Shown here: positions 822 through 29,551 of the stretch, in pieces
Position numbering within the stretch: the first letter of the stretch is position 1
How the letters are laid out: each line of letters opens with the position of its first letter
Origin: a virus
Taxonomy: Duplodnaviria; Heunggongvirae; Uroviricota; Caudoviricetes
Length of the DNA: 64,000 bases
IMG/VR virus record: IMGVR_UViG_3300042868_014220
Reading direction: 5' to 3' (one strand)
Position numbers and translations under genes: made by a program
The notes under the pieces: model-generated
The model's input: only the letters and a program-made list of their open reading frames with translations
Databases searched by the model: none
Told to the model about the DNA's origin: nothing

Positions 822-986
822 GAGCAGTTTTTAATATAAATACCAGTTTTATTTGGAATTTCAATATTTATTCTTACCTTTGTATAACAAATCACGGGTG
901 GCTCCCTTAATAGTTAAGGCTGACCTTAAGCATCTGACGAAAGTCTATACAGGGGGTGAAAGTGATTTTTAAGTTCTTTAAATTAT

Positions 987-1377
987 GGGGGTATAATGGT
1001 ATTGATTGGCATTATTATTTATTTAGGGCACGTAGTGAGATGTTTCCTATCACTTTAATCTATGGTAATAAAAACTAAACGGCAACGTTTTAAACAAAAT
1101 GGCTCTAGTAGGTCTTGTTAAGCAAGATGAGCTTGTATCAGTAGCGTAAGCTTTGGTATATTCGGGTCGGGGAGACGTTAACCTAGGAACAGGAGTCTCT
1201 ATAGGGTGTGGTTTCTATCCTAAAAGAAACAAGTGGAGGATTAGTTCTCAGTAAACCGAACCACTTAAAAATAAGGGAATTGTGAATTTTGGAGTGTTAA
1301 CAAACACTATCCTAAACGTGTAGTCCTGATTATTTAGAGTGAACAAGACGAGATTTCGACTATCTCTACCTCCACCA
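987..1377 (+). ncRNA. ssrA: Candidate tmRNA (ssrA); encoded CCA at 1375-1377
   Basis: 5' GGGGGTA pairs with 3' TACCTCC (G3:U70 wobble, Ala identity); perfect T-arm GAGAT-TTCGACT-ATCTC; discriminator A + CCA; internal short tag-like ORF ending ..DELVSVA-TAA (~1102-1149); intrinsic terminator follows; smpB present at 53663-54097. Confidence 0.55.
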
Positions 1378-1380
1378 TTG

Positions 1381-1409
1381 AAAATGGGGTCTTAATTGAC
1401 CCCATTTTC
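1381..1409. terminator. Bidirectional intrinsic terminator hairpin (aaaatggggtcttaattgaccccatttt) with T-tract
   Basis: Perfect palindrome GGGGTC..GACCCC flanked by A/T runs. Confidence 0.6.
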
Positions 1410-1934: not shown

Positions 1935-2014
1935 ATTGATAAATATATGGAGATGGGTAAAAAACTATGGAGGTGGATAAAAAATATTTATATGTTAATG
2001 GTATATTTATATAC

Positions 2015-3514
2015 ATGAGATTAACACCAATTCTTATACAAGAAGGTCGGAAAGAAGATTTACGTAAAAAATATTCATTTAAATTTAAAGAGTATCCTGA
2101 AACTTTGGATTTTATTTTTGGTATTTCGGATTTGGCAGATACTAATTTCAAATATGCTGACTTTGTATTAAGAGAGTTAGCTCCAAATGACGATGTAGAT
2201 GAGATTGAAGAGATTGTAGAACTTGTTAAAGATTTTGATAGATTCAAACAATCGTTAGAGGTTAAAGATATTAACCAATATGATTTGGAAAGTTTACAAA
2301 GGGCAATTAAAAAACACACAGAATCTTCCAAATCGCAATCAAATAAATTTGACCCATCTGATGTTAAAAAAATATACGAAGATGTTAATGTTTTAATTGT
2401 TAGACCATTAACTCATAAAGCCTCTTGTAAATATGGTTCTGGAACCAGATGGTGCACAACACAACAAGACCCAAATTATTTCTTTAATTATACAAAAGAA
2501 AAACGAGCATTATATTATATAATTCTTAAAAAATTTGATATAAATAATAAGTTTTACAAAATTGCAATCTATCTTGAACCAAATGATATTACTTGGTATG
2601 ACTCAACAGACCAAGTAATGACTGATAGGGAAATTGACGTTTTTAATTTAGGTGCTCCAAAGATAATACAAACAATCAAAGATGATTACACAAAATACCT
2701 ACATAATATGGCGGTAGGATTCTTTGAAAACTTGTTTAATCCTGCAGCTTATGAATATCTTGATATTAGTAGTGCGTTTGGTAATATTAACCATAAAGTA
2801 GGGATTGAATATTTACATGCCAGCATTATTCCTGACAAACCAGGGTATGCAAAAATGGATATGAATATTTCGGTTGATGAAGAAAATATTGCACAATATA
2901 CTGTTTTATTAAACTATGAAACAGGACAATTTATTTATTTTAATGTCGGTTTTGAAGATAACAACGAAATTAAACCTGATATTGATTTTAAATTTGATGA
3001 TTTGGTATTTAAATTCCAATTTGGACTACAAAGATACAATTTAGAATCAGACGAAGACCTTAAAAGATATTTTGAAGAATTGTGTTATGACATTACAAAA
3101 AATCTTATTCGGCCTATGAAAAAAGTTCGTAAATTCACTATGTTAATTCATGACGGAAATATAACTTGGACTCCAAACAGAAGTAGTTATGGTTTTACAT
3201 TTAAAGAAAATAAAGGTTTAATAAAAAAACTTGTTGATTATTTTGATTCAGGTTATGATAATGGAACCAAATTAGATTTCTTGGAATACATTGGATTATT
3301 AGATAAAAAAGTAATTAATGGAAAACCATATTACTCAAGAAAAGGTCAAAATGATTGGCATATTTCATCCAAATGGAGAGGTCAATATAGTGGTTTCTTT
3401 AACTCGGCAAAATTAGCTGGAATTATTGAATATACAAAAGATGGAAATCAGTTTATAATGAAACCAGGTCCAAATTTTGAAACGTTCAAATCAGGTGAAT
3501 TAAAAGCTCTTTAA
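2015..3514 (+). CDS. KYGSGTKWCT-family protein (unknown function); start probably ATG 2015 preceded by ATATTTATA motif
   Basis: Conserved block LIVRPLTHKASCKYGSGTRWCTTQQDPNYF shared with 3 paralogs. Confidence 0.6.
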   Translation: MRLTPILIQEGRKEDLRKKYSFKFKEYPETLDFIFGISDLADTNFKYADFVLRELAPNDDVDEIEEIVELVKDFDRFKQSLEVKDINQYDLESLQRAIKKHTESSKSQSNKFDPSDVKKIYEDVNVLIVRPLTHKASCKYGSGTRWCTTQQDPNYFFNYTKEKRALYYIILKKFDINNKFYKIAIYLEPNDITWYDSTDQVMTDREIDVFNLGAPKIIQTIKDDYTKYLHNMAVGFFENLFNPAAYEYLDISSAFGNINHKVGIEYLHASIIPDKPGYAKMDMNISVDEENIAQYTVLLNYETGQFIYFNVGFEDNNEIKPDIDFKFDDLVFKFQFGLQRYNLESDEDLKRYFEELCYDITKNLIRPMKKVRKFTMLIHDGNITWTPNRSSYGFTFKENKGLIKKLVDYFDSGYDNGTKLDFLEYIGLLDKKVINGKPYYSRKGQNDWHISSKWRGQYSGFFNSAKLAGIIEYTKDGNQFIMKPGPNFETFKSGELKAL

Positions 3515-3567: not shown

Positions 3568-4161
3568 ATGAAAGTAATATTTTTGGACCACGATGGAGTT
3601 ATCTGTTTGTCAGAAAATTGGGGTAGCAGATACAAAAAAGCTCATAAATGGATGACTTATGGTAATATTCAAGAATATTCTCCTGACGCATTGAATGAAC
3701 TAACTCGTCCAGTAAATGTTCGTTTTGACAATTTTGACAAAAAAGCAATTAAAGTTCTTAATGAAATTTTAGAAAAAACAGGAGCAGAAATTGTTGTATC
3801 ATCCGATTGGAAAAATTGGGCAACCGTTGAAGAAATGGGAGAATATTACGAATCTCAAGGTATTATCAAAAAACCAATTGCATTTACCGACACAAAACTT
3901 TTAGACAACTACGATAACTTTCCGTGGAATCGAGAATTAGACTTAGAACAAACTCGTAGTTTGGAAATTGCCGAATATCTAACTGCATATAAATCCATTC
4001 TTAAATGGGTTGCAATTGATGATTTAGATATGTCACTGAGAAGAACTGAAGATGGTGAGTATAGTTGGGGGTTAAATAACTTTGTTCACACACCAAAAAG
4101 TAATCAGGGAATTAAACAATCAGGAATTAAAGAAAAAATAATTAAATTCTTAAATGATTAA
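3568..4161 (+). CDS. HAD-superfamily phosphatase-like protein
   Basis: N-terminal motif I FLDHDGV (DxDG), downstream VVSSDW; TTATCTTT promoter-like element immediately upstream. Confidence 0.55.
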   Translation: MKVIFLDHDGVICLSENWGSRYKKAHKWMTYGNIQEYSPDALNELTRPVNVRFDNFDKKAIKVLNEILEKTGAEIVVSSDWKNWATVEEMGEYYESQGIIKKPIAFTDTKLLDNYDNFPWNRELDLEQTRSLEIAEYLTAYKSILKWVAIDDLDMSLRRTEDGEYSWGLNNFVHTPKSNQGIKQSGIKEKIIKFLND

Positions 4162-6260: not shown

Positions 6261-7517
6261 TTAAAATAACCAAGAATTTACCTCAGATAACGACTTAAGA
6301 GTAACTTCATCCAACGACTTTAAAATATCCTCAACATTGTTTGGGTCTACACCACCGATTGACATTCTAAACCATCCAGGATTCTCTTTTGAACCAAAGT
6401 ATTCAAATGGGACAACACCGATACTACACTCATCTATTAAGAATTTAGTATACGATTCCATTGATGGAAATGACACCGATTCCCCAAAGTAAATTGAGAT
6501 GTATATTCCTCCTTCAGGTCTTTGACAGTCAATACGGAATCCTTTATTTTTTAATCCATCAATCTTATCACAAATTTTAGTTGTGATATCAGAATATTGT
6601 TTGGTTTTTGTTTTCACAAAGTTAACCGTCTCATCATAATCGTTTAAATACTTTGCAACGGCGTTTTGCTCAGGTTTTGGAGCCCAAGCCCCAATGTGTG
6701 AGAGAACCTCTGTCATCTTACCTATAATGTACTGAGGACCGAATACCCAACCCACCCTAACACCTGTTGCACATAATGATTTTGAAACACCGTCAACGCA
6801 AATTAAGTATTCACGAATTTCAGGGCATAATGTTAATGGATGAACAAATAAACCGTCAACAGTAATGTCGGAATAAATTTGGTCAAAGAACAAATAACAA
6901 GGTCTTTCATTATCACCCCTACGTTTGTTTTCCTTAACAATTACCTCACAAATACCTTTTAATGTTTCGGGGTTAATTACACGTCCTGTTGGATTCTGAG
7001 GAGAACAAATACATACCATATTCAATGACGTGATATTCTCTTCAATATCTTGAACTGTAGGAAAGAATGAGTTCTCAGGTTTACATTCAATGGGAATGGT
7101 ATTCACACTGTGAAGAAATGAGTAGTGATTGTTATTCCAAGATGGAACAGGATAAAGAACGATGTCACCAAACTCAACAATTGATTTATAGATTGTGTAG
7201 ATTAACGGACGAACGCCAGCCCCAATCAATATCTCATTCTCGTTGTAATCAATACCTTGTCTTTTTTTAAGGTATTCACTGACCGATTGTCTTAGATTCA
7301 ATTGTCCTGACGATAATGGATAATTTGTTAAATTTTCGTTGTAAGATTCTATGATTAACTCTTTAAGTTTTTTGGGAATTGGGTTTATGTTTGAATCAAA
7401 ATCACCAATGGTTAAGTTTTGAACTTTTCTTGTTTTTGAGATTTCCTTAATTTTTTGTGAGATTTTGATGATTTCAGAACCCACAATATTGGTTCCTACT
7501 AATGATAATTTTCGCAT
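6261..7517 (-). CDS. PLP-dependent aminotransferase (class I/II fold)
   Basis: SKSLCATGVRVGW (PLP-lysine motif SKxxxxxGxRxG), overall aminotransferase-like. Confidence 0.75.
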   Translation of the reverse strand: MRKLSLVGTNIVGSEIIKISQKIKEISKTRKVQNLTIGDFDSNINPIPKKLKELIIESYNENLTNYPLSSGQLNLRQSVSEYLKKRQGIDYNENEILIGAGVRPLIYTIYKSIVEFGDIVLYPVPSWNNNHYSFLHSVNTIPIECKPENSFFPTVQDIEENITSLNMVCICSPQNPTGRVINPETLKGICEVIVKENKRRGDNERPCYLFFDQIYSDITVDGLFVHPLTLCPEIREYLICVDGVSKSLCATGVRVGWVFGPQYIIGKMTEVLSHIGAWAPKPEQNAVAKYLNDYDETVNFVKTKTKQYSDITTKICDKIDGLKNKGFRIDCQRPEGGIYISIYFGESVSFPSMESYTKFLIDECSIGVVPFEYFGSKENPGWFRMSIGGVDPNNVEDILKSLDEVTLKSLSEVNSWLF

Positions 7518-7560
7518 GTATTAAATATATATTTTTAAATTCTGTTTGTCAATTTTTTTG

Positions 7561-7644
7561 CGGAAGGTGAGGGGTTCGAACCCTCGCATCATTTATAGAT
7601 GTACGGTTTAGCAAACCGCTGCGTTACCACTCTGCCAACCTTCC
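7561..7644 (-). tRNA. tRNA-Ser (GCT), type II
   Basis: 7-bp acceptor GGAAGGT/ACCTTCC, T-arm GAGGG-TTCGAAC-CCCTC, anticodon loop TTGCTAA, long variable arm. Confidence 0.65.
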
Positions 7645-7704
7645 TTGTATTATTACTGTTCCAAAATGAATAAAAAAATAGAGTTTTGGAACACTAATAA
7701 TTTT

Positions 7705-8181
7705 TTATCTTATTTTCCAGGCTCCGTTGATGTGTTTCTTCATTTGTTTACCATCGGCAAGGTTTCCGATTACAACACCATCTTTAATGGTAAACGCATG
7801 GCGATTAACAGTAACAATATAGGTCCCTACAGGATATCTTTTAATAAATGAACCCGTGGTTGTCCTCCTAAGAGTTTTCATACCTTTTACGGTTACATAA
7901 TATAACATTGTATTATGTTCTTCGGTAACGATTTCAATACTTTTACCGTTAATTTGTTCGTTGTTTTTAGATAACAAGTTTATTGTGCTTGCAAATCTAT
8001 AAACACCTTTTTTATTGTTTCTACAGAATTTTTCTTTTGTGAATTTGTGTGCAGAATCATAATCCATATCAGCTGCGGTTGCGATTGCTCTTACAACACA
8101 ATCATTATCTTCAGATTTTGCAATTACAGATTCTGATATTCCTTTGATTACTTCTCTTGATGATATATATCCCTTATTCAT
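7705..8181 (-). CDS. Hypothetical protein
   Basis: Protein-like ORF between tRNA-Ser and ferritin gene. Confidence 0.5.
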   Translation of the reverse strand: MNKGYISSREVIKGISESVIAKSEDNDCVVRAIATAADMDYDSAHKFTKEKFCRNNKKGVYRFASTINLLSKNNEQINGKSIEIVTEEHNTMLYYVTVKGMKTLRRTTTGSFIKRYPVGTYIVTVNRHAFTIKDGVVIGNLADGKQMKKHINGAWKIR

Positions 8182-8269
8182 GGTACAAAGATAAAGAAAA
8201 GATTTTAAACCGCAAAAAAAAATCCCACCGAATACTCAGAGGGATTTTACTTTAATGTATTTGTGTAGA

Positions 8270-8857
8270 TTAAAAATAAGTTTGCTCAAAGTATAAAACT
8301 TGGAATTTGTCAGTTTTACTTATAAGATTGGATGCATTGATTAAATCATTGTATTCAACTACGGCATCTTTTTGAATTTCTCTTAATTCTTGTAAAAAGT
8401 CAAAAGTTGTGATATCATCAGAAAAAACGGTATGAGAATCTTGATTGTATGCTTTCATTAAACTTAATTCCATTGTATATGCACCATATACGATTTCAAT
8501 TAAACCTGTGAATGTATGTTTTGGATTTGCAGCTGGAATTTGGGGGATAATGTTAAACCCTGTCATATAATCTTCAATTTTCTTTGCGTGGGTTAATTCA
8601 TCCAACGCTTCACTTTCAAAGAATGCTCCTGCTTTTTTGTAATTAGCATCGTTACACCAATTAGCTGCCGCTCTATAGAAATAATGTGCGGTATATTCAT
8701 CTTTAATTCTATCAGTTAATAGTTTAACTGTTTTGTCCGATAATACATATAACTTAGGTTCTTTAGATGAACTTAGTTTATTTTCACCAGACTTTTGTTC
8801 ATTCAACTTAATAGCTTTGAACAATTGGTCTCTTGTCATTGTGATTTTGTCTTCCAT
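8270..8857 (-). CDS. Ferritin-like iron-storage protein
   Basis: EYTAHYFYRAAANWC ... EALDELTHAKKIEDYM ... FDFLQELREIQKD pattern matches the bacterial ferritin di-iron site layout. Confidence 0.7.
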   Translation of the reverse strand: MEDKITMTRDQLFKAIKLNEQKSGENKLSSSKEPKLYVLSDKTVKLLTDRIKDEYTAHYFYRAAANWCNDANYKKAGAFFESEALDELTHAKKIEDYMTGFNIIPQIPAANPKHTFTGLIEIVYGAYTMELSLMKAYNQDSHTVFSDDITTFDFLQELREIQKDAVVEYNDLINASNLISKTDKFQVLYFEQTYF

Positions 8858-8890
8858 AACTATAAATACTACGAGTAATGAAAAAAATTG

Positions 8891-8962
8891 TAGCGACGGA
8901 AGGAATCGAACCTTCGACTTCTCGGATATGAGCCAAGTGTTCTTCCACTGAACTACATCGCC
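8891..8962 (-). tRNA. tRNA-Met (CAT)
   Basis: Cloverleaf parsed manually; anticodon loop CTCATAT; T-loop TTCGATT. Confidence 0.75.
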
Positions 8963-8969
8963 ATTTTTG

Positions 8970-9041
8970 TGGTTTTGAAAGGACTCGAACCCTCACTAAA
9001 AAATCCGTAATTTTACGTGCTATCCGTTACACCACAAAACC
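8970..9041 (-). tRNA. tRNA-Arg (ACG)
   Basis: Anticodon loop TTACGGA; T-arm GAGGG-TTCGAGT-CCTTT. Confidence 0.7.
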
Positions 9042-9045
9042 ATTG

Positions 9046-9117
9046 TTATCCCTTAAGGATTCGAACCTCAATTCATTGGCCCAAAACCAATTGTCCTGCC
9101 AATTAGACGAAGGGATA
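9046..9117 (-). tRNA. tRNA-Gln (TTG)
   Basis: Acceptor TATCCCT/AGGGATA; anticodon loop TTTTGGG. Confidence 0.75.
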
Positions 9118-9124
9118 ATTTTTG

Positions 9125-9206
9125 TGGGAGCAGTAGGACTCGAACCTACGAACTCAAAAGAGGGGACATTTACAGTGTCCTGCCATTGCCGCTAGACGAT
9201 ACTCCC
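9125..9206 (-). tRNA. tRNA-Tyr (GTA), type II (bacterial-type long variable arm)
   Basis: Acceptor GGGAGTA/TGCTCCC; anticodon stem-loop GGACA-CTGTAAA-TGTCC; 13-nt variable arm. Confidence 0.75.
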
Positions 9207-9279
9207 AAATAAGTTAAACTAACACCCTGACTCCTTTCGAACTTTGGGGGCTCGTATCATTCATTCTGTGTTAGTTTTG

Positions 9280-9352
9280 CACGCCTGATAGGAATCGAAC
9301 CTATAACACCTGGTTTTGGAGACCAGTGCTCTACCAATTGAGCTACAGACGC
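9280..9352 (-). tRNA. tRNA-Trp (CCA)
   Basis: Anticodon stem-loop CTGGT-CTCCAAA-ACCAG; canonical D-arm TAGCTCAATTGGTAGAGC. Confidence 0.8.
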
Positions 9353-9359
9353 GTATTTG

Positions 9360-9431
9360 AGGTCGGTACAGGAATTGAACCTGTGTAGATAGTTTTGCAG
9401 ACTACCGCCTAAACCACTCGACCAACCGACC
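9360..9431 (-). tRNA. tRNA-Cys (GCA), U73 discriminator
   Basis: Perfect acceptor GGTCGGT/ACCGACC; anticodon loop CTGCAAA. Confidence 0.7.
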
Positions 9432-9437
9432 TTATTG

Positions 9438-9512
9438 TGACCCCGCCAGGATTCGAACCTGGGACTCCCTAGTTAAAAGCTAGGTGCTCTAAACCAACTG
9501 AGCTACGAAGTC
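9438..9512 (-). tRNA. tRNA-Lys (TTT)
   Basis: Anticodon stem-loop CCTAG-CTTTTAA-CTAGG. Confidence 0.8.
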
Positions 9513-9518
9513 AAATTG

Positions 9519-9590
9519 TTGTCACGATAGGATTTGAACCTATGACCGCTTCCGTATCAGGGAAGAACTCTACCGCTGAGTTACGTGACA
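9519..9590 (-). tRNA. tRNA-Ile (GAT)
   Basis: Anticodon stem-loop CTTCC-CTGATAC-GGAAG. Confidence 0.8.
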
Positions 9591-9721
9591 ATTTATTAAA
9601 ATCAATTGTGGGTTTCCATTTCCACTCCGACAACTTCAGTCAATGTGATTTGTGGTAGTGTACCTCTACCTTAGACACTTCGGAACGACCCACTGTATGT
9701 GGTCTGTCGTTAATTGATTAG

Positions 9722-9803
9722 TGGTTAGAACAGGATTCGAACCTGTGACAATACAACCTTTACAGGGTGACATAACCTCTTTGCCATTACGTATTACCTA
9801 ACC
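9722..9803 (-). tRNA. Type II tRNA, anticodon probably GTA (second Tyr-like) with imperfect anticodon stem
   Basis: Acceptor GGTTAGG/TCTAACC, T-arm ACAGG-TTCGAAT-CCTGT, loop CTGTAAA, long variable region. Confidence 0.45.
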
Positions 9804-9808
9804 ATTTG

Positions 9809-9892
9809 CGGAAGCGAAGGGAATCGAACCCCCAATACGTTGCAGTACTACTTGTTTTCAAGACAAGCTCCTCGTCCATTCGGACCACTTCC
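9809..9892 (-). tRNA. tRNA-Ser (TGA), type II
   Basis: Anticodon stem-loop CTTGT-CTTGAAA-ACAAG; long variable arm. Confidence 0.75.
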
Positions 9893-9898
9893 AATTTG

Positions 9899-9974
9899 GG
9901 TGACTAACGGGAGTCGAACCCGTGACCTCTTGAACCACAATCAAGTGCTCTAAACCAACTGAGCTATAGCCAAC
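9899..9974 (-). tRNA. tRNA-His (GTG) with encoded G-1
   Basis: Anticodon stem-loop CTTGA-TTGTGGT-TCAAG; extra 5' G opposite C73. Confidence 0.75.
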
Positions 9975-9980
9975 ATGTTT

Positions 9981-10073
9981 GCTGATTAAAAAGGATTCGA
10001 ACCTTAATCCTACTCCCTATTGTCTTCGGTTAAGAATATCGTCGGGTGGAGTGCTCCATTACACTATAATCAA
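9981..10073 (-). tRNA. Atypical elongated tRNA-like gene (93 nt) with ~20-nt insert in anticodon/variable region
   Basis: Acceptor TTGATTA/TAATCAG, D-arm GTGT-AATGGA-GCAC, T-loop TTCGAAT intact; no canonical anticodon arm found. Confidence 0.35.
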
Positions 10074-10122
10074 TCGGATGCTTCGAATCATCCATTCTCA
10101 AGGTAATTAATCTTGAGTTTTG

Positions 10123-10232
10123 CAGTCAGGACAGGATTCGAACCTGTATGTGATTTGACATGCTTTTTTATAATGCTTCCTAAATCACTTATCCGCCTTC
10201 AGTTTTTGCGTCTACCATTCCGCCACCTAACT
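10123..10232 (-). tRNA. tRNA-Leu-like gene with ~27-nt insertion (110 nt)
   Basis: Acceptor AGTTAGG/CCTGACT, Leu-type D-arm TGGCGGAATGGTAGACGC, T-arm ACAGG-TTCGAAT-CCTGT; internal GTGATTT...AAATCAC hairpin. Confidence 0.4.
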
Positions 10233-10293
10233 AAATTCTAATTCTATACAGTCACAACATGGGACCCTATGAATTAGTAACAGTCTCACCTCG

Positions 10294-10384
10294 TAGTCAG
10301 TAGAGGATTCGAACCTCCCATCTATGTGGCTACCGTATTTGTGGTGACTCGAACACCGCCTCTAAGACTGACCAACATCCGACT
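10294..10384 (-). other. tRNA-like element with two T-arm modules (double-T-arm), no anticodon arm
   Basis: Acceptor AGTCGGA/ACTGACT; hairpins GGTG-TTCGAGT-CACC and GGAGG-TTCGAAT-CCTCT. Confidence 0.35.
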
Positions 10385-10511
10385 ATTTTGAAAAGATATA
10401 TGGTGTCGCTCCACAGCCTCTACAACCTAAGGATTTTGCTCAGAAGGGATATTATCCGCTCCGTACTTATCCGAGTTGCTAACCCTGTCCTTTCGAGACA
10501 GATATCTTTTG

Positions 10512-10584
10512 TGGTACGAACTGGAATCGAACCAGTGGCACAAGGATTTTCAGTCCTTTGCTCTACCTACTGAGCTACCATACC
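10512..10584 (-). tRNA. tRNA-Phe (GAA)
   Basis: Anticodon stem-loop AAGGA-CTGAAAA-TCCTT; D-arm TAGCTCAGTAGGTAGAGC. Confidence 0.8.
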
Positions 10585-10591
10585 ATTTTTG

Positions 10592-10663
10592 TAGCCCCTA
10601 CGGGAATCGAACCCGTCTTTCTAGAATGAAAATCTAACGTCCTAACCGATAGACGAAAGGGCC
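10592..10663 (-). tRNA. tRNA-Glu (TTC)
   Basis: Acceptor GGCCCTT/AAGGGCC... anticodon loop TTTTCAT. Confidence 0.7.
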
Positions 10664-10797
10664 AAATTGACTTTACCTTACAAAGTCTAAGTAGGTTTAG
10701 TTGCGGTCTCTCCTACCTGATGAAGGCTCTTTTTGTGATTAATCATCACAGGCACGTTATTCATCATTTTAACACGAAGCCAACGTGTTGCTCATCG

Positions 10798-10863
10798 TAG
10801 TCAATACAGGATTCGAACCTGCCCTTGGTAATTACTCCCGTGGTGCCGCTCCACTAATTGACT
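10798..10863 (-). other. Short (66 nt) degenerate tRNA-like element
   Basis: Acceptor AGTCAAT/ATTGACT, D-arm GTGG-AGCGGCA-CCAC, T-arm GCAGG-TTCGAAT-CCTGT; anticodon arm absent. Confidence 0.3.
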
Positions 10864-10891
10864 TCTCCAAGATAATTAGTCTTGAAGATTG

Positions 10892-10966
10892 TAGTCCCTG
10901 TAGGATTCGAACCTACGACCTATTGTTTGTAAGACAACCGCTCTAAACCAACTGAGCTAAGGGACT
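10892..10966 (-). tRNA. tRNA-Val (TAC)
   Basis: Anticodon stem-loop GTTGT-CTTACAA-ACAAT; perfect acceptor AGTCCCT/AGGGACT. Confidence 0.8.
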
Positions 10967-11039
10967 GTTTTTTCTAATATGTCAAAGAACCATTTTCTAA
11001 ATCAACGATACAAAGGTAATGTTATTTTCGATATAAACA

Positions 11040-11080
11040 AAAAAACCCCAAACTTTATTTACAAGTTCGGGGTTTTTATA
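11040..11080. terminator. Intrinsic terminator hairpin (aaaaccccaaacttt...aagttcggggttttt)
   Basis: GC-rich inverted repeat CCCCGAACTT/AAGTTCGGGG-like with T-run. Confidence 0.5.
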
Positions 11081-11279
11081 TTTTATTATTTCTAACTAAT
11101 TTTAACCTATTGTATTTACCGAACTCCAATTTCGCACATTGCGATACCAGCTACAAACTTCTTGTTGCTTAATAAACGACGACTTATGTTCCATTGATGT
11201 TCTCATTTTCTAATAATTATAACAATAATAGGAAAAGTTTCTTATTTGTCAAATATATTTTTCAGAGTATTTATAAAAG

Positions 11280-11702
11280 ATGAGAAATTTAAGACAAATT
11301 ATTAAAGAGGAATTATTATTAGAGAAAAAAATTGGTCAGATTAGAGCCTCTCTTGAAATTGCGTTTTTATTTGATGTTATTAGAACAACTCATGCACATA
11401 TTAGAACGACTAGAACAGGTATTGAAAATTACGAAAAAAGAGATATTGGAAATGACGAAATCAATGAACTTATTAATATGTCAAAAAGTGAAATTGCTGA
11501 AAAAATAGCAATGAGAGAAATTGTTCATGAACAAGACTTTGTAATAAAATCTTTAAGATGGCAGTTGGCATTAGCAATTAGAGCTATTCACGTAGATGGA
11601 ACTTATTGGGAATTACTTGTTAAGACTGTTTTCAGAGAATCCAAAGATAATCCATTTAAAGTTGGTGAGGGTCAATTAGTCATTTATTTAGATTTTAGAT
11701 AA
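11280..11702 (+). CDS. Hypothetical protein with N-terminal IIKEEL motif variant
   Basis: Promoter-like TTATTTGTCAAAT upstream; protein-like ORF. Confidence 0.5.
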   Translation: MRNLRQIIKEELLLEKKIGQIRASLEIAFLFDVIRTTHAHIRTTRTGIENYEKRDIGNDEINELINMSKSEIAEKIAMREIVHEQDFVIKSLRWQLALAIRAIHVDGTYWELLVKTVFRESKDNPFKVGEGQLVIYLDFR

Positions 11703-11890
11703 AAAAAGGATAACACTTGTATCTGAATCGTTCCCGTGTTACCCTTGGTACCCATGTGATTAAGCTTGTGTATCTGAATCGTTCTCCTCAATCACAGTAC
11801 AAAGATACAACAAAATTCCGAACCACAAAATTTATTCTATAATTTTTTTAATTGTCTTTAATGAATTGATTACTATCTTCTATTTATAGG

Positions 11891-12907
11891 TTGATGAAAA
11901 AAATTTTATTTATTCTAAAACAAAGAAACATCTATTCAAATGGCGTTTATTCAAACGTTGACAGTGGATTACAAAACTCGGCGAGATTTGTAAATGATAT
12001 GTTGGTTAAAAACAAAGTTGACTCTACACTAGTACAAGTGGTAGATAATAACGAAATCGACAAATATTGTACTATACACAAACCTGATGTTGTAATCATT
12101 GAAGCAATTTGGGTTGTTCCAAGTAAATTTGAGGTTTTAAAGAAACTACACCCGAATATCACTTGGATAATTAGATTACATTCTGAGTTACCATTTTTGG
12201 CAAACGAAGGTGTTGCAATGGAATGGTTAAAAGAATATGTAAAATACGATAACGTATTTATCGGTTCAAATTCAATTTATTTGATTGATGCCTTGTCTCC
12301 GTATTTGGGAACCAACATCATCTATCTACCAAATTATTATAAAGTAACAAGTAAAGAATCTGTAATAAAGGAAAATAATTATGGTGAGATAAATGTTGGA
12401 ATCTTTGGAGCAATAAGACCAATGAAAAATGCATTAACCCAAGCGGTTGCTGCAATCAATTATGCTAATATGAATAATCTAAAATTAAGATTACATATAA
12501 ACACGGCAAGAGTTGAACAAAAGGGTGAAAACGTATTGAAAAATTTAAGAGCTTTGTTTGTTGATACAAGACACGAATTAGTTGAACATGCATGGTTGAA
12601 ACATGAGGATTTTGTTAAATTGGTTGGGACAATGGATATCTGTTTACAAGTATCAATATCCGAAACCTACAATATTGTTGCTGCCGATGTAGTTAATCAA
12701 AGAGTTCCTGTTGTAACCACAGATGAAATTCCATTTGTTAATAGTTTTAGTTCTGTTAATTCTAACAAAAATGTTGAAAACATTATCTACACTATGAAGT
12801 TTAATCTAAGATTCAAAACTGTGTTAACCATCTTAAATAAGTTCTATTTGTTTGTAAATTCAAAAAGAGCTAAAATGGTTTGGATGAATTTCATCCATAA
12901 TTTTTAG
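11891..12907 (+). CDS. Hypothetical protein (338 aa)
   Basis: Long ORF; no motif recognised with confidence. Confidence 0.5.
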   Translation: MMKKILFILKQRNIYSNGVYSNVDSGLQNSARFVNDMLVKNKVDSTLVQVVDNNEIDKYCTIHKPDVVIIEAIWVVPSKFEVLKKLHPNITWIIRLHSELPFLANEGVAMEWLKEYVKYDNVFIGSNSIYLIDALSPYLGTNIIYLPNYYKVTSKESVIKENNYGEINVGIFGAIRPMKNALTQAVAAINYANMNNLKLRLHINTARVEQKGENVLKNLRALFVDTRHELVEHAWLKHEDFVKLVGTMDICLQVSISETYNIVAADVVNQRVPVVTTDEIPFVNSFSSVNSNKNVENIIYTMKFNLRFKTVLTILNKFYLFVNSKRAKMVWMNFIHNF

Positions 12908-12988
12908 TACCTTGGGTCGGACTCGAACCGACACGACTTTCGCCACAAGTTCCTAAGACTTGAGTGTCTACCATTTCACCACCAAGGC
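12908..12988 (-). tRNA. tRNA-Leu (TAG), type II
   Basis: D-arm TGGTGAAATGGTAGACAC, anticodon stem-loop CAAGT-CTTAGGA-ACTTG, long variable arm. Confidence 0.75.
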
Positions 12989-12991
12989 ATT

Positions 12992-13083
12992 TCATTATCG
13001 CTTCAGCCACATCGGGAAAGACGCCTCCCCCGCGTTGTTTAAGTGTATATCTTGCGTCGTATCTCACTGAGCTACGATAATGA
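12992..13083 (-). other. tRNA-like element with 9-bp acceptor stem and non-canonical T-loop (possible pseudo-tRNA)
   Basis: TCATTATCG...CGATAATGA terminal helix; internal TAGCTCAGTGAGA D-arm-like segment. Confidence 0.3.
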
Positions 13084-13087
13084 TTTG

Positions 13088-13161
13088 TAGTCCCAGTAGG
13101 ACTCGAACCTACGACCTACGGTTTAGAAAACCGTTGCTCTATCCAGTTGAGCTATGGGACC
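13088..13161 (-). tRNA. tRNA-Arg (TCT)
   Basis: Anticodon stem-loop ACGGT-TTTCTAA-ACCGT. Confidence 0.8.
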
Positions 13162-13168
13162 ATTTTTG

Positions 13169-13248
13169 TACCTGGGGAGAGACTCGAACTCTCATTCACA
13201 AGGAACTGAGGCTTAAACCCAGCGTGTCTACCATTTCACCACCCAGGC
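13169..13248 (-). tRNA. tRNA-Leu (TAA), type II
   Basis: Anticodon stem-loop CTGGG-TTTAAGC-CTCAG; D-arm TGGTGAAATGGTAGACAC. Confidence 0.7.
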
Positions 13249-13250
13249 GA

Positions 13251-14024
13251 CTATAGTTTAAAACTCTCTTCAAACAATGTATGACTTTCGTTTTCTTCTG
13301 TATTCATTGTATGTAGAAGTAATATGGTTGAATTGTTAAAATTAAAAATAAACCTACCATCAGAACCTTCGTTGATTTCCCAACCACCAAAATGAGATTC
13401 TAATTCTCTATAACACCAATCTTCAATTCCTGCAGGAACAGCATCACCTGTTTCCTCAAATGAACCTTCAATATATCCAGAATCACCACCACCATTATAT
13501 GGTATAGTCAAAATACCATCTTCAGGAACTTCAATCTCTTTCATATCTGTTTCCATCCAACGCTCAAATCTTTCGATATCATCAGCAGCATCATATTCAA
13601 CTGAGTTTTCATTACCTCTACCATAATAAGAAAACCAATATACAACAGTAATTTCTCTATTAGGACAATCAATTTCAAGGTCAATTTTTTGATAATTTAC
13701 CATATCAATATCCACAAAATCTATTGATTCAAACTTACCTGATTTTATAACCTTGTCCATAATTTTTTGTAAAATTGGAGTTAGATTTTCAGGTATGTCT
13801 GCTCTATAGTTATTTTCAAAATGAGTAACGTATTTCCATTTAATATCATCTGATGTTAGTTCTTGTTGTTGAATATCTAATTCAAAACCTACCACACCAA
13901 CACTCATACCTAATGAACCAAGGTAGTTACATATCCTATTAAGATATTTTTTTTCGTCTAATGTTAAAATTCCATTCATAATTATAAATATCAGTCTTCT
14001 ATTTTCATTGTCCTTAGCATCCAC
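13251..14024 (-). CDS. Hypothetical acidic protein
   Basis: Protein-like ORF. Confidence 0.5.
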   Translation of the reverse strand: MDAKDNENRRLIFIIMNGILTLDEKKYLNRICNYLGSLGMSVGVVGFELDIQQQELTSDDIKWKYVTHFENNYRADIPENLTPILQKIMDKVIKSGKFESIDFVDIDMVNYQKIDLEIDCPNREITVVYWFSYYGRGNENSVEYDAADDIERFERWMETDMKEIEVPEDGILTIPYNGGGDSGYIEGSFEETGDAVPAGIEDWCYRELESHFGGWEINEGSDGRFIFNFNNSTILLLHTMNTEENESHTLFEESFKL

Positions 14025-14338
14025 TGAGGTCTTTTATTCTCTAATAAATTGTCAATCCACTCCTTTGCGGATGGGATATAGTTATTACAATCTTCTCTGA
14101 CGTGTTGTTCACCGACATAACGAGTGTAAACTATTTTCCCATCACTATTGGTAAATTCGGACCCAAATTTCTTCTCCATCTCAAAAATACCTTCACTATG
14201 GTGTCTAAACATTCTGTGTAAAGAATCCGCAATCCAACCTTTTGTTTCATCCAACCATTCGTGTAAATGGATGTAATCTTCAGGTTTTCCACCAAACTTT
14301 TTAACCGAACTTTTTGCGTGTATGTTAGGATGTGCCAT
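13991..14338 (-). CDS. Hypothetical His-rich protein
   Basis: ORF; possible metal-binding His residues. Confidence 0.45.
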   Translation of the reverse strand: MAHPNIHAKSSVKKFGGKPEDYIHLHEWLDETKGWIADSLHRMFRHHSEGIFEMEKKFGSEFTNSDGKIVYTRYVGEQHVREDCNNYIPSAKEWIDNLLENKRPQWMLRTMKIED

Positions 14339-14345
14339 AGTTTAT

Positions 14346-14801
14346 TTAATAATCTTTTCCTTTGTGAAGTAAGTAAGTTGCGTAATATTTTAAGTCCGTT
14401 CCTTGATAATAAATTACAACATAATAATCTAAATCTCCTGAGGGAATATAATTAATCCATATCTTGTCTCCGCACTCATTCACAGCTGAAATTAATCTTA
14501 AACAATCACGAGTACTATCTTCATCCCACTCTTCAATAATTGAAAACTTCATAACAATACCTGCCCTTGTCTTTGAAAACGTAAATGAAGAGTCAGTTAG
14601 GTTAACGTGAAAGTGGTCATATTCCCATTTAGTTTTTTTCTTCGGTTTTCTAATCTTAACATTTTCTGCATCTTCAATCATTTTTTTTGAATTTTTGAAT
14701 TGGTATCTGTATATGGAATCCGCTTCTAAATTCTGACCATTTGCTTCGGACAATCCGAAGATAAATAGGAACATAAGTCCTATGATAAATTTTAACTTCA
14801 T
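14346..14801 (-). CDS. Secreted/lipoprotein-like hypothetical (start set at MKLKFIIGLMFLF signal peptide)
   Basis: Upstream part of track ORF overlaps tRNA-Ala; internal Met followed by hydrophobic signal. Confidence 0.5.
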   Translation of the reverse strand: MKLKFIIGLMFLFIFGLSEANGQNLEADSIYRYQFKNSKKMIEDAENVKIRKPKKKTKWEYDHFHVNLTDSSFTFSKTRAGIVMKFSIIEEWDEDSTRDCLRLISAVNECGDKIWINYIPSGDLDYYVVIYYQGTDLKYYATYLLHKGKDY

Positions 14802-14815
14802 ATTATTTTTTTTTG

Positions 14816-14890
14816 TGGAGACAATGGGTATCGAACCCACCTCAAAAACATTGCAAGTGTTTTTCGCCAAGCCTTGGTACATTTGCCCCC
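14816..14890 (-). tRNA. tRNA-Ala (TGC) with G3:U70
   Basis: Acceptor GGGGGCA/TGTCTCC with G3-U70 wobble; anticodon stem-loop AAACA-CTTGCAA-TGTTT; atypical D-arm. Confidence 0.6.
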
Positions 14891-15077
14891 GTTGTTTCTT
14901 AAATGGAATCGCCATTTGTTGCTTTGTAAATTGCAATAACCAAACCAACCACCCAACCAACAATAACTAAAGTGATTAGGACATCTTTCATTGATAATTT
15001 TCTTAACATATTCATACTATTTTTTTATTTAGGTCACAAAGATACTATAAAATTCTTAATTACCAAATTTATTTTTG

Positions 15078-15160
15078 AGCCTCCTGACGGATTCGAACCG
15101 CCGCGTCCTTACGAAACCTGATTACAAGTCAGGTGCAATCAACCACTATGCGAAGGAGGC
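15078..15160 (-). tRNA. Type II-length tRNA with apparent anticodon TGT (Thr) - identity ambiguous
   Basis: Acceptor GCCTCCT/AGGAGGC, anticodon stem-loop CCTGA-CTTGTAA-TCAGG, ~14-nt variable arm, T-arm GGCGG-TTCGAAT-CCGTC. Confidence 0.45.
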
Positions 15161-15169
15161 ATGTTTTGG

Positions 15170-15241
15170 CGGTCTATGCGGGAGTCGAACCCGCCTCACT
15201 ACCGTGACAAGGTAGCATCCTAGCCGATGAACGAATAGACC
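15170..15241 (-). tRNA. tRNA-Asp (GTC), CCA encoded (15167-15169)
   Basis: Anticodon stem-loop CTACC-TTGTCAC-GGTAG; acceptor GGTCTAT/ATAGACC. Confidence 0.75.
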
Positions 15242-15464
15242 AAATTTCCCCACCCTGAGATTATGGATGAGTGGATTTTAACGGTTTAGTTTTCTTAAAA
15301 ACAAACACATTAGTGTCTTACCACATGAAACTATAAATCAACACTACTGGGAGGAATTGTGTCAGTTCCTTGGTCCCAAGACCCCCTCTGTAAAATCGTG
15401 GAGGGCTACAACTACATCATTGTTAAGAAACGATGCCAAATCTGTGAGTATCTCTTACTCATTG

Positions 15465-15538
15465 AGCGAGTAGTCGGTCTCGAACCGACCCTATTTCACA
15501 TTGGAAGTGTGATGCCATACCAACTAGGCGATACTCGC
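15465..15538 (-). tRNA. tRNA-Gly (TCC)
   Basis: Acceptor GCGAGTA/TACTCGC; anticodon stem-loop TCACA-CTTCCAA-TGTGA. Confidence 0.7.
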
Positions 15539-15973
15539 AATTTTTAATTTAAAATGTAAATCTCTATGACAATTAGAACACAAAATATCACACTTATCAA
15601 TTTCATTTAATATTTTTGTCTTATTTCCTCTCCTAATTAAAGTAGAAACATCAATATCTTTTTCCTCAGGATTTCTGTGATGAAAATCTAAAACCCAATA
15701 TCTATTCTCACCACACACCTCACATTTTAATGTTTTTTTATAATCCGTAAACCATTCAATTATTGATTGTGTAAATACTTTTGCTTTATCAATATATTTT
15801 TTTTTATTTTTTTCATAGTGTTTTTTTCTATAATCACTTTGACATTTTCTACAGATATGTTGAAACATTTTTTCTTTTCTATCATATCTCGATGCGAAAT
15901 GGATATCATCCAACGGCAATTCTAACTCACATTTAGGACATATTTTTATTTTCATATCTATAAATACTTCCAA
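15524..15973 (-). CDS. HNH homing endonuclease
   Basis: Zn-finger CPKC...CRKC plus LDFHHRNPEEK...CSNCHRDLH HNH motif. Confidence 0.75.
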   Translation of the reverse strand: MEVFIDMKIKICPKCELELPLDDIHFASRYDRKEKMFQHICRKCQSDYRKKHYEKNKKKYIDKAKVFTQSIIEWFTDYKKTLKCEVCGENRYWVLDFHHRNPEEKDIDVSTLIRRGNKTKILNEIDKCDILCSNCHRDLHFKLKIASIA

Positions 15974-16006
15974 ATTATAAAAAAACTTGGAAGTGTTAAT
16001 TATTTG

Positions 16007-16090
16007 CTGGCACGGTAGGATTCGAACCTACGGTGTGGTTGCCCAGTCAGGTTAACAGCCTGATGCTCTCGGCCTCTAAGCGACGTACCA
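16007..16090 (-). tRNA. Type II-length tRNA with apparent anticodon GTT (Asn) - identity ambiguous
   Basis: Acceptor TGGTACG/CGTGCCA, anticodon stem-loop TCAGG-CTGTTAA-CCTGA, ~14-nt variable region. Confidence 0.45.
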
Positions 16091-16097
16091 ATATTTG

Positions 16098-16170
16098 TCG
16101 AAAGTGTTAGATTCGAACTACGCCCCAACCTCCCAAAGGTTATGTGCTACCTGACTACACCACACTCTCG
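16098..16170 (-). tRNA. tRNA-Pro (TGG), weak T-stem
   Basis: Anticodon stem-loop TAACC-TTTGGGA-GGTTG; T-loop TTCGAAT. Confidence 0.55.
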
Positions 16171-20334: not shown

Positions 20335-20411
20335 TGGGCCTAGAGGGATTTGAACCCCCGTGTAACCAGCTACGCTTTCTACGCATTATGAGTGCGAGGC
20401 GATATAGGCCC
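20335..20411 (-). other. Degenerate tRNA-like element (intact acceptor and T-arm, possible CAT anticodon loop, D-arm missing)
   Basis: Acceptor GGGCCTA/TAGGCCC, T-arm GGGGG-TTCAAAT-CCCTC. Confidence 0.3.
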
Positions 20412-21516: not shown

Positions 21517-21918
21517 TTATTTTTCTTTAACTATTTCAATTAATTTTTTAAGACAAGCAAGTTCTGCTTCTTCGTAAGTATTATAAGTTTCTTCAGAATA
21601 GATGTAAGTATTTTTGTCTAAATAAATAATAGAGTACATCCACTTTTTAGTATCATTTTTTCTATTTGCACTAATACCTACATCATTTAATAAATCATGT
21701 TTTTCTCTAAACCATCTAAATGCTTGTTGGTAAAGTGGTGTTGAAATGGTAAACATAGAACCAATGTTATAAAATTCATCAAGTGAATCATATTGTTTAT
21801 CGTCAGCAAACTTCCAATCTTTTCCATTTAGTGTGTAATAATATCCAAAACATTGTTCATCAAATCCAAGTTCTTTTAACGCTAACGCTTGTTCGTAAGG
21901 TATAAATTCTTTATTCAT
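21517..21918 (-). CDS. Hypothetical protein
   Basis: ORF. Confidence 0.5.
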   Translation of the reverse strand: MNKEFIPYEQALALKELGFDEQCFGYYYTLNGKDWKFADDKQYDSLDEFYNIGSMFTISTPLYQQAFRWFREKHDLLNDVGISANRKNDTKKWMYSIIYLDKNTYIYSEETYNTYEEAELACLKKLIEIVKEK

Positions 21919-21987
21919 GCCACAAATGTAATAAAATTTTTTGGTTTTGGAATTAAAATTGACTATTCTTCTAAAAAAATTAAGAAG

Positions 21988-22473
21988 ATGAGTGGAGTAT
22001 TAGTGTTGAATTATGATTATACACCCCTAAATATAACTTCTACAAGGAGGGGTTTTATACTTGTAGATAAAGGTAAGGCTGAGATTATCAAGTCAGATGA
22101 AACACCTATTGCAGGTGGATATAATAACTATGTTAGACCATTAATCATCAGGTTGTTGAGTTACATAAAATTCCATACCCGACTTATCAGAGTTAATAGG
22201 TCAAGAATTTATAAAAGAGATAATCACCAATGCGTATATTGTGATTCAAAGAAACAATTAACCTTGGACCACGTTATCCCTAAGTCTAGGGGTGGTAGTA
22301 ATGATTGGACTAACTTGGTAACCTGTTGTTTTAAATGTAACCTTAAAAAAGGTAATAGAACTCCTGAAGAAGCAAAGATGACAATGAGTGTAAAACCATT
22401 TGTCCCATCATTATTAAATGATAACGGAGCATTAAATAAAATTTGGAACGATTATCAAAACTCATTTGTATAA
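21988..22473 (+). CDS. HNH endonuclease (start trimmed to MSGVLVL)
   Basis: CVYCDSKKQLTLDHVIPKSRGGSNDWTNLVTCCFKCNLKKGNR canonical HNH. Confidence 0.75.
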   Translation: MSGVLVLNYDYTPLNITSTRRGFILVDKGKAEIIKSDETPIAGGYNNYVRPLIIRLLSYIKFHTRLIRVNRSRIYKRDNHQCVYCDSKKQLTLDHVIPKSRGGSNDWTNLVTCCFKCNLKKGNRTPEEAKMTMSVKPFVPSLLNDNGALNKIWNDYQNSFV

Positions 22474-28876: not shown

Positions 28877-29551
28877 ATGATTAAGATAGATAAAGATTTC
28901 AAAGGTGATGTGTGGATTTTTTCTGACCCCCACTATAACCACACAAACATTTGTCGTGGTATTACCAACTGGCGTTTACTTAACGGAGAAATTCCAGTTG
29001 ACCAAACTCGTGATTTCCCGAGCTTAGAAAAGATGAACTCATCAATTGTTAACAACATCAACGAAGTTGTTATGCAGGATGACATTTTAATTTGTCTTGG
29101 TGATTGGAGTTTTGGTGGTTTTGAATCTATTAGAGAATTTTGGGATAGAATTGTTTGTAAAAACATTCACTTAATTTTTGGAAACCACGACCATCACATT
29201 GAAAACAACAGACAAGGTTGTCAGGGTTTATTTAAGAGTGTATCTCACTACAACACATTAAAGATTGGTGAATACACATTCCGTTTGATGCACTACCCAA
29301 TCAGTTCTTGGGACGGTTTAAATAAAGGTGTTATGCATCTTCACGGACACTGTCATCTTCCAACCAACTTAAGATTTGGTAAGGGACAAAGAATGGACGT
29401 TGGAATGGATGGTCACCCTGAGTTCCGACCATACCACATTGTTCGTGAAGTGGTTCCTTTGTTAAAGAACAGACCAAAAGTATCCGAAATGGATAATGAC
29501 CACCACACAGATGAAATCACAGGTAGAGAAAAAGATAATAAATTTTTATAA
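28877..29551 (+). CDS. Calcineurin-like metallophosphoesterase
   Basis: GDWSFGG, GNHDHH, LHGHCH motifs. Confidence 0.7.
   Translation: MIKIDKDFKGDVWIFSDPHYNHTNICRGITNWRLLNGEIPVDQTRDFPSLEKMNSSIVNNINEVVMQDDILICLGDWSFGGFESIREFWDRIVCKNIHLIFGNHDHHIENNRQGCQGLFKSVSHYNTLKIGEYTFRLMHYPISSWDGLNKGVMHLHGHCHLPTNLRFGKGQRMDVGMDGHPEFRPYHIVREVVPLLKNRPKVSEMDNDHHTDEITGREKDNKFL

Follow-up and report, generated by a model that had tools for sequence, protein, structure and literature searches.

A one-piece tmRNA gene with a long conserved tag in an uncultured large phage that most likely infects Bacteroidota

The 64,000-nt stretch of DNA analysed here (‘the window’; IMG/VR virus record IMGVR_UViG_3300042868_014220) carries close to its first end a noncoding segment that a first-pass annotation, made from the letters alone, had proposed to be a phage-encoded transfer-messenger RNA (tmRNA; ssrA) gene. 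On one side of it lie a leader, a promoter and the gene for a protein of 601 amino acids (aa), on the other a terminator, a gene for an HNH-type endonuclease and a gene for a 515-aa protein. The tmRNA-binding protein SmpB and a ClpP-family protease are encoded further along the window, and a ClpC orthologue just outside it (Table 1).

A scan with the Rfam covariance models, one of the checks that the annotation had named, returned the tmRNA family RF00023 over exactly positions 987–1377 and over the entire model (positions 1–374 of 374), with 65.8 bits against a gathering threshold of 47 and an E value of 2e-23. Together with covariation in 105 relatives and the presence of SmpB, this full-length match supports the tmRNA proposal; to judge from its sequence, the segment is a genuine and complete tmRNA gene, in which the defining features of tmRNA that could be tested are present, pseudoknots 2–4 with partial support. 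As had been noticed at first pass, the gene is richer in G and C than its surroundings (GC fraction 0.37–0.41 versus 0.24–0.33 in the flanks). No Rfam family besides tmRNA was found between positions 800 and 1500 at E values up to 1; a group I intron, which the annotation had held out as an alternative, and likewise a riboswitch or a ribozyme, were dropped on this ground as explanations of the region or its leader.

The tmRNA sequence of the window recurs with 100% identity in five independent metagenome contigs, which therefore contribute no covariation. The search for more distant relatives started from homologues of the neighbouring 515-aa protein, found at 54–58% identity on 11 IMG/VR contigs. 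Just upstream of these homologues and on the same strand, a full-length tmRNA was recognized by Rfam in nine of the 11 and by a nucleotide profile in the other two. Two pattern scans of the viral collection, one built on the conserved beginning of the tag, the other on the 3′ domain, returned 28 and more than 120 contigs, and an nhmmer profile (built instead of a clade-specific covariance model, as tmRNA is too large for the model builder) gathered 142 full-length copies, 105 of them distinct. The median pairwise identity among these 105 homologues, which we refer to as the clade, is 0.56, and the window shares 0.47–0.88 with the others. Against 50,697 deposited phage records, blastn in distant mode with the tmRNA found no detectable nucleotide similarity, and megablast with 12 kb found nothing beyond a tRNA fragment.

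The ends of the gene form the tRNA-like domain that the annotation had described. Its 5′ heptamer GGGGGTA pairs with TACCTCC near the 3′ end, G989 stands opposite T1371 as the equivalent of G3:U70, the T-arm GAGAT-TTCGACT-ATCTC directly precedes the 3′ heptamer, and a discriminator A and an encoded CCA complete the molecule. In all 105 relatives the seven acceptor pairs are canonical and the G3:U pair is invariant, with compensatory double changes at four of the seven pairs. Canonical pairing in the T-arm reaches 98.8%, compensatory changes affect each of its five pairs, and its UUCGA loop is invariant. The discriminator is A throughout (105/105), and the D-loop analogue carries GG at RNA positions 12–13 in 100 of the 105; there is no anticodon arm. 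CCA is encoded in 69 relatives, the window included, and replaced by CUU, CAA, CUG, CCG or other triplets in the remaining 36 (among them loci L019, L020 and L021), which would depend on a CCA-adding enzyme.

Conservation of pairing extends into the body of the molecule. The top of helix 2 (CACGU/ACGUG) is 100% canonical, and its middle segment 85%, with double changes at six of eight pairs. In pseudoknot 1, canonical pairing of stem 2 amounts to 85.5% among the 58 sequences with the register of the window, compared with at most 48% in slid registers, and six of its seven pairs show double changes; stem 1 shows them at four pairs. Stem 2 of pseudoknot 2 is 78–89% canonical. Its stem 1 is perfect in the window and paired in 44% over all 105 sequences; sliding by +1 raises this figure to 73%, so the low count reflects a register that differs by one base between subgroups rather than absence of the stem. 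The 3′ hairpin, in the region of pseudoknot 4, is 97.6–98.4% canonical, with compensatory changes at four to five pairs. In an independent count over 35 pairs of a MAFFT alignment, 93.0% were paired as compared with 79.4% in shuffled alignments, and the covariation score was 0.397 as compared with 0.153. None of 500 shuffles reached either value, and slid registers gave at most 54% and 0.095.

Inside the gene, the annotation had placed a tag reading frame at about 1102–1149, ending DELVSVA-TAA. This ending is correct, whereas the start is not: the Rfam alignment puts the resume codon, with high posterior probability, at GGC 1081–1083, preceded by an A-rich CUAAAC. tmRNA tag frames have no start codon, and ATG 1102 was discarded as the start since both the conserved frame and the alignment begin at 1081. 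A tmRNA called by ARAGORN in relative L064, with a tag ending in AA, has its coding part at RNA positions 95–160, the same position as the frame from 1081. The resulting 22-codon tag, GNVLNKMALVGLVKQDELVSVA, has open counterparts of 20–22 codons in all 105 relatives, which together specify 63 distinct peptides. The resume codon is GGC or GGA in every one, and the stop codon is TAA in 95, TAG in eight and TGA in two. G1 and G11 are invariant, L12 is found in 102 of the 104 tags of 21–22 residues, and the consensus reads G-(N/D/E)-(V/T)-(L/F/I)-x-K-(M/L)-x-x-x-G-L-(I/V/L)-(R/K)-x-x-x-V-x-V-A. Most tags end in VA (78) or AA (11), the remaining 16 in TI, TA, VS, GA, NA or IA; the final residue is A in 98. 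The hydrophobic C-terminus that the annotation had expected of a tag is thus present in the window. Entropy by codon position is 1.01/0.47/1.26 in the tag, as is expected when a frame is translated, and 0.99/1.14/0.87 in a control region. The literature searched held no description of this tag family, within an incomplete coverage of the searchable literature. A literature search for the Bacteroidota tag GENNYALAA gave no match either.

The tmRNA appears to be transcribed on its own. Upstream of it, positions 851–881 fit TTTG-N19-TAnnTTTG, which we take to be the Bacteroides/Flavobacterium promoter consensus. The block is conserved in nine syntenic relatives, and 68 of 103 distinct tmRNA copies are preceded by TTTG-N17–21-TAnnTTTG (57 of them with a 19-nt spacer), compared with 0.9% of shuffled sequences. 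The strong intrinsic terminator noted at first pass indeed follows the gene, its 12-bp stem leading into a T-run; in every relative examined a strong terminator stands directly after the tmRNA 3′ end, each of unrelated sequence. Because the promoter motif is conserved and terminators of different sequence occupy the same place, we regard the tmRNA as an independently transcribed gene with its own predicted promoter and terminator, read by a Bacteroidota-type RNA polymerase.

Between promoter and gene runs a leader of ~100 nt, most of which consists, in the window, of a structured element with outer pairing AAATCAC/GTGATTT, inner pairing CUCCCU/AGGGGG and the hairpins UUAAGG-CUGA-CCUUAA and GAC-GAAA-GUC. 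Thirty loci have this element, in 14 distinct versions, and in each of them it shares the strand of the tmRNA and lies between the tmRNA and its promoter. Its conservation is far higher than that of the tmRNA itself, and other clade members lack it. Its main hairpin shows one compensatory change, and the single-sequence fold has a z-score of only −1.47. It has no Rfam match within the region and threshold given above. A hammerhead ribozyme, considered for its CUGACGA...GAAA, was rejected, since no stem II is possible and Rfam gives no match. The element may act in cis as a regulatory RNA, or it may be a small RNA that is transcribed along with the tmRNA.

As the annotation had stated, an smpB homologue lies elsewhere in the window. 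Residues 6–142 of the encoded protein align to PDB entry 7ljp and residues 8–140 to Thermus SmpB (144 aa), and the motif YDKRE..KKRD..RE is kept in the C-terminal tail, the part of SmpB that makes contact with the decoding centre. The protein belongs to a cluster of at least 120 metagenomic sequences at 69–98% identity, carried on contigs of 309 and 319 kb. It also matches phrog_6791 (PHROGs v4, 125 bits); as this family is labelled ‘unknown function’, phage SmpBs go unnamed when annotated by PHROGs alone.

Two further proteins bear on the fate of tagged products. The ClpP-family protein scores 156 bits to solved ClpPs and retains the contexts AASMG (Ser), HQ (His) and RD (Asp), which we take to be the positions of the catalytic triad; it is a possible downstream effector of the tmRNA tag. 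Residues 13–656 of the ClpC orthologue align to residues 149–793 of Staphylococcus aureus ClpC with 741 bits. The alignment takes in the middle domain as well as both AAA+ modules, and an IGF motif occupies the place of the ClpP-docking loop. The orthologue is devoid of the N-terminal domain of ~148 residues (ClpC 1–148), which in cells binds adaptors and phospho-arginine. ClpC is found upstream of the tmRNA and on the same strand wherever the flank reaches at least 6 kb (50 of 50 loci), and in 74 of 76 loci whose flank reaches at least 4 kb, at a distance of 1.1–6.5 kb (median 2.9 kb); the 601-aa neighbour is present in only 38 of those 50. Such constancy is suggestive of a functional module. 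Beside ClpC lie a peptidase-like gene (phrog_4191) and a gene for a UVR-domain protein.

Table 1 Features of the tmRNA locus and of the replicon around it. Positions are those of the window unless a contig is named; RNA positions count from the first nucleotide of the tmRNA.
Feature	Position	Strand	Basis or details
One-piece tmRNA (ssrA) gene, 391 nt	987–1377	+	Rfam RF00023; covariation in homologues
Tag frame, 22 codons, GNVLNKMALVGLVKQDELVSVA	1081–1149	+	resume codon GGC 1081–1083; stop TAA 1147–1149
Acceptor stem, 5′ strand	987–993	+	pairs with 1367–1373; G989:U1371, equivalent of G3:U70
Helix 2, 5′ strand	1006–1033	+	pairs with 1316–1349; recovered by RNAalifold
Pseudoknot 1	1034–1070	+	stem 1 RNA 48–53/63–68; stem 2 RNA 55–61/78–84
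Pseudoknot 2	1171–1207	+	stem 1 RNA 185–190/209–214; stem 2 RNA 195–199/217–221
3′ hairpin (pseudoknot 4 region)	1291–1312	+	RNA 305–326
T-arm, acceptor 3′ strand, discriminator, CCA	1350–1377	+	T-arm 1350–1366; acceptor 3′ strand 1367–1373; A 1374; CCA 1375–1377
Bacteroidota-type promoter (predicted)	851–881	+	−33 TTTG 851–854; 19-nt spacer; −7 box TACCTTTG 874–881
Optional structured leader element, 81 nt	888–968	+	5′ leader of the tmRNA precursor
Intrinsic terminator	1380–1409	+	12-bp stem, then T-run; overlaps 3′ end of the convergent HNH gene
SmpB, 144 aa, tmRNA-binding partner	53663–54097	−	PF01668, 150 bits, profile 3–139 of 143
ClpP-family protease, 226 aa	22873–23553	+	PF00574, 187 bits
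ClpC orthologue, 671 aa	L007 7016–9031	−	outside the window, close to its left end; same strand as the tmRNA and 3.7 kb upstream
601-aa protein	1–821 (reaches into the window)	−	
HNH-type endonuclease, 180 aa	1392–1934	−	PHROGs
515-aa protein	1967–3514	+	
tRNA array, 23 genes, all 20 amino acids, including tRNA-Ala(TGC)	7560–16170	−	ARAGORN
Second HNH gene (Pfam HNH_5), just upstream of ClpP	21889–22473	+	

Taken together, we consider it probable, at roughly 0.85, that positions 987–1377 are a functional one-piece tmRNA gene of a large phage most likely infecting Bacteroidota. The precursor would be trimmed at G987, presumably by host RNase P, and charged with alanine by the host alanyl-tRNA synthetase through G3:U70. 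Phage SmpB would bind the tmRNA, and host EF-Tu would bring the complex to ribosomes stalled on broken or stop-less mRNAs. There the ribosome would switch to the tag frame, add (A)GNVLNKMALVGLVKQDELVSVA and terminate, and so be freed, and the non-polar end of the tag would mark the product for an AAA+ protease. Since the phage has a tmRNA-linked ClpC with an IGF motif as well as ClpP, tagged products may be fed to the phage ClpC/ClpP in addition to, or instead of, the host protease. The phage would likely gain from ribosomes that stay available, and perhaps from recycled amino acids, while mRNAs are cut during infection.

Several observations weigh against this interpretation. ARAGORN, the second check named by the annotation, called no tmRNA either in the window or in positions 800–1500. 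It also fails on most relatives: a further clade member (in L170) is missed likewise, and of 18 clade loci only three were called, one with the right tag (L064) and two, L019 and L111, with an implausible frame far downstream. We therefore read the miss as a limitation of the tool; it is a limit of the heuristic and touches no defining property of the tmRNA family. Posterior probability in the RF00023 alignment is low mid-gene (average 0.56), subgroups differ by whole modules in pseudoknot 3 and in the second stem of pseudoknot 4, and the T-stem of the window closes with U-A where G-C is usual, a feature of only ~6 of the 105 sequences. The window tag ends in VA, not in the canonical LAA. Andersen and colleagues are said to have found in 1998 that GFP with an ssrA-tag variant ending in LVA was degraded about as fast as the LAA form, and on this analogy a VA end would be compatible with ClpXP-type recognition. 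The linkage to ClpC could be a matter of inherited gene order and not of function, and some of the counted loci are not independent of one another. Expression, processing, charging and tagging are all inferred. Finally, PHROGs and Pfam searches of 45 open reading frames (ORFs) of the window for capsid, portal and terminase found none, so that the viral assignment rests on indirect evidence.

That last result, along with genes of a cellular kind (tRNAs for 20 amino acids, SmpB, ClpP, a cyclophilin, an aminotransferase and a ferritin-like protein), is what one would expect if the contig came from a small AT-rich bacterium and the gene were part of the cell's own ssrA/smpB pair. The wider evidence makes this very unlikely. 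No rRNA or ribosomal protein genes were found in the window, where Rfam gives only tRNAs and the tmRNA, and most ORFs are ORFans; it does hold a T4-type RNA ligase, two endolysin-like proteins, several HNH endonucleases and a thymidylate synthase. The tmRNA clade occurs on more than 120 IMG/VR contigs classified as viral, the largest among the matches listed being 304 kb, and the largest contigs with the linked SmpB measure ~310–320 kb. The nearest deposited SmpB (41–49% identity) and ClpC (57%) proteins belong to Lak megaphages and to uncultured phages of 634–735 kb. In 185,579 species-representative genomes, the 3′ motif matched 11 contigs of metagenome-assembled genomes, but a full-length member of the clade was present on just one of them, 248 kb long and binned with a Flavobacteriaceae genome; there the tmRNA lies beside a tRNA cluster and carries the tag GNVYSEMAVLGLVSDNVAVNA. 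On the evidence of these genomes the clade is virus-restricted, and the replicon is very probably a phage.

The host of this large, uncultured and AT-rich phage is most likely a member of the Bacteroidota. A C-terminal sorting domain of the type IX secretion system (T9SS; Por_Secre_tail) is found in two phage proteins, at 62387–63862 (−) of the window and at 1–1711 of L001. Our assignment follows from this signal, which is Bacteroidota-specific, from the promoter type and from the Flavobacteriaceae binning.

The remaining genes of the window provide further context. The HNH neighbour reported at first pass matches phage endonuclease/HNH families; in five relatives (L019, L020, L023, L024 and L025) no HNH gene stands at this position and the 515-aa gene comes right after the tmRNA terminator, which gives the HNH gene the look of a mobile insertion. 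The 601-aa and 515-aa proteins at the flanks are paralogues of each other (blastp E = 3e-17), in agreement with the KYG-type family that had been proposed. At least four ORFs, at 1–821 (−) and at 1967–3514, 29564–30511 and 42554–43576 (+), match phrog_17056, of unknown function. This family of multi-copy paralogues has a CKYGSGTRWC-like motif, and two of its members flank the tmRNA; its only match in deposited phages is a weak one to Salicola phage SCTP-2, a phage of 440 kb with four copies. Beyond the tRNA array, a 24th tRNA-like match at 20335–20411 (−) scores 34.6 bits with Rfam; ARAGORN is silent on it, and it overlaps a mechanical ORF. RNA-repair-like genes on the plus strand, at 3568–4161, 28877–29551, 32471–33724 and 46012–46686, encode a HAD_SAK_2 protein, a T4 Rnl1-type RNA ligase and two metallophosphoesterases; the first of these, 3568–4161, has the HAD domain of ‘Swiss Army Knife’ RNA repair proteins. 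The ligase, the HAD domain and the phosphoesterases fit, circumstantially, the idea that the phage copes with RNA damage. Cell-like genes at 6261–7517 (−), 8270–8857 (−), 36420–37559 (+), 37563–38186 (+) and 59111–59539 (−) comprise, in this order, a class I/II aminotransferase, a ferritin/rubrerythrin-like protein, a thymidylate synthase, a ferredoxin-like protein and a cyclophilin-type prolyl isomerase. The thymidylate synthase is 379 aa long for a Pfam profile of 266 positions and may carry an insertion.

Even on a phage, the RNA might serve other ends than rescue. It could be an anti-host mimic that competes for SmpB, EF-Tu or stalled ribosomes with no productive trans-translation. There is precedent in mycobacteriophage DS6A, whose RNA consists of a tRNA-like domain only, and such molecules inhibit tmRNA (PMC4131195); the strong difference of the tag from canonical ones would suit a mimic as well. 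However, this phage supplies its own SmpB and has no need to titrate that of the host, selection acts on its tag frame at the protein level and the stop codon is conserved, which would be pointless in a pure decoy, and all elements for productive trans-translation are conserved, which leaves a mimic very unlikely. The chance is slighter still that the gene is a host-derived remnant with no function of its own, be it an ssrA piece captured at an attachment site or a recently acquired gene in decay. ssrA is a frequent integration site of phages, which then carry its 3′ part, and ssrA fragments are known in prophages (PMC9004378), but here the gene is complete, including the two halves of the tRNA-like domain, and has its own conserved promoter and terminator, 105 diverged sequences keep the pairing and an open, codon-periodic tag frame, the tag is unlike the short canonical ones (ANDERYALAA, AEDQLPLAA) of the bacterial tmRNAs that the 3′ motif also picked up among the species genomes, and no integrase was seen among the ORFs scanned.

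How does a functional phage tmRNA of this kind compare with known systems? Like the bacterial one-piece ssrA, for instance that of Escherichia coli (tag ANDENYALAA), it has G3:U70, a T-arm, discriminator A, CCA and an SmpB partner, with helix 2 and pseudoknot 1 before the resume codon and, with partial support, further pseudoknots after the tag; here, too, the tag has a non-polar end and its stop codon lies near a hairpin. Unlike bacterial ssrA, it is phage-encoded, its tag is 21–22 residues long (compared with ~10) and usually ends V-x-V-A instead of LAA, the T-stem of the window closes with U-A, and ARAGORN fails on most members of the clade. The phage ClpC resembles that of S. aureus and Bacillus subtilis in both AAA+ modules, the middle domain and the IGF position, and the phage ClpP keeps its catalytic motif contexts; the phage ClpC differs from Firmicutes ClpC in its missing N-terminal domain.

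Phage tmRNAs as such are not new. They have been listed since at least 2014, in Bxz1-type mycobacteriophages and Bacillus phage G (PMC4131195). An ARAGORN survey reported tmRNA in 402 of 18,146 phage genomes, with 2.3% as the share among isolate phage genomes, and two-piece forms in phage Melnitz and in pelagimyophages (PMC9004378), and huge phages have been reported to encode both tmRNA and SmpB (PMC7162821). The kind is thus known, and phage tmRNA and phage SmpB are already documented; the annotation, which had called a phage tmRNA/SmpB pair uncommon, was right about the presence of the pair but implied more novelty than it has. Like the listed phage tmRNAs, the present gene is a complete ssrA in a large lytic-type genome rich in tRNAs and translation-related genes, and as in some huge phages SmpB is encoded too. 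It differs from them in having no nucleotide similarity (among the 50,697 records), a distinct tag family and a conserved ClpC neighbour, although the tmRNAs of Lak and other huge phages may belong to the same clade; from the permuted tmRNAs of marine phages it differs in being one-piece. The window SmpB is full length, as are those of Lak phages, which infect Prevotella, and of the uncultured phages LR756501-4 (636–735 kb), with which it shares 41–49% identity (45–47% with Lak) and whose hosts are Bacteroidota or thought to be. Apart from these proteins, whose genomes measure 540–735 kb, it belongs to a separate cluster on contigs of ~310–320 kb. What is less ordinary is a large virus-restricted lineage with a long conserved V-x-V-A tag, which ARAGORN misses, and with ClpC as a constant neighbour.

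A more far-reaching scheme, which we put forward as no better than a doubtful extension of the tmRNA reading, is a private rescue and disposal circuit in which phage tmRNA and SmpB would add a phage-specific degron of 21–22 residues, G-N-V-L-x-K-M-x-x-x-G-L-V-R/K-x-E/D-x-V-x-V-A, for the phage's own N-domain-less ClpC and ClpP, without host adaptors. If this were true, the phage would free stalled ribosomes and reuse amino acids under its own control during infection, and the constant placement of ClpC upstream of the tmRNA would reflect a functional module. In any case, the conserved long tag and the fixed association with ClpC yield a concrete, testable hypothesis on how phages dispose of incomplete proteins, and the tag is directly searchable in metaproteomes, as peptides ending in AGNVLNKMALVGLVKQDELVSVA.

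For the survey of phage tmRNAs, the lineage has a practical consequence. Since ARAGORN, which published phage surveys used, misses it, frequencies obtained in this way, such as the 2.3% above, are probably too low; the missed genes would come to light in an Rfam scan or with a model made for the clade. For a group of uncultured phages of ~300 kb, promoter type and T9SS domains indicate Bacteroidota as hosts. The tmRNA clade that these phages carry is further evidence that translation quality control is in part taken over, and not merely borrowed, by large phages.

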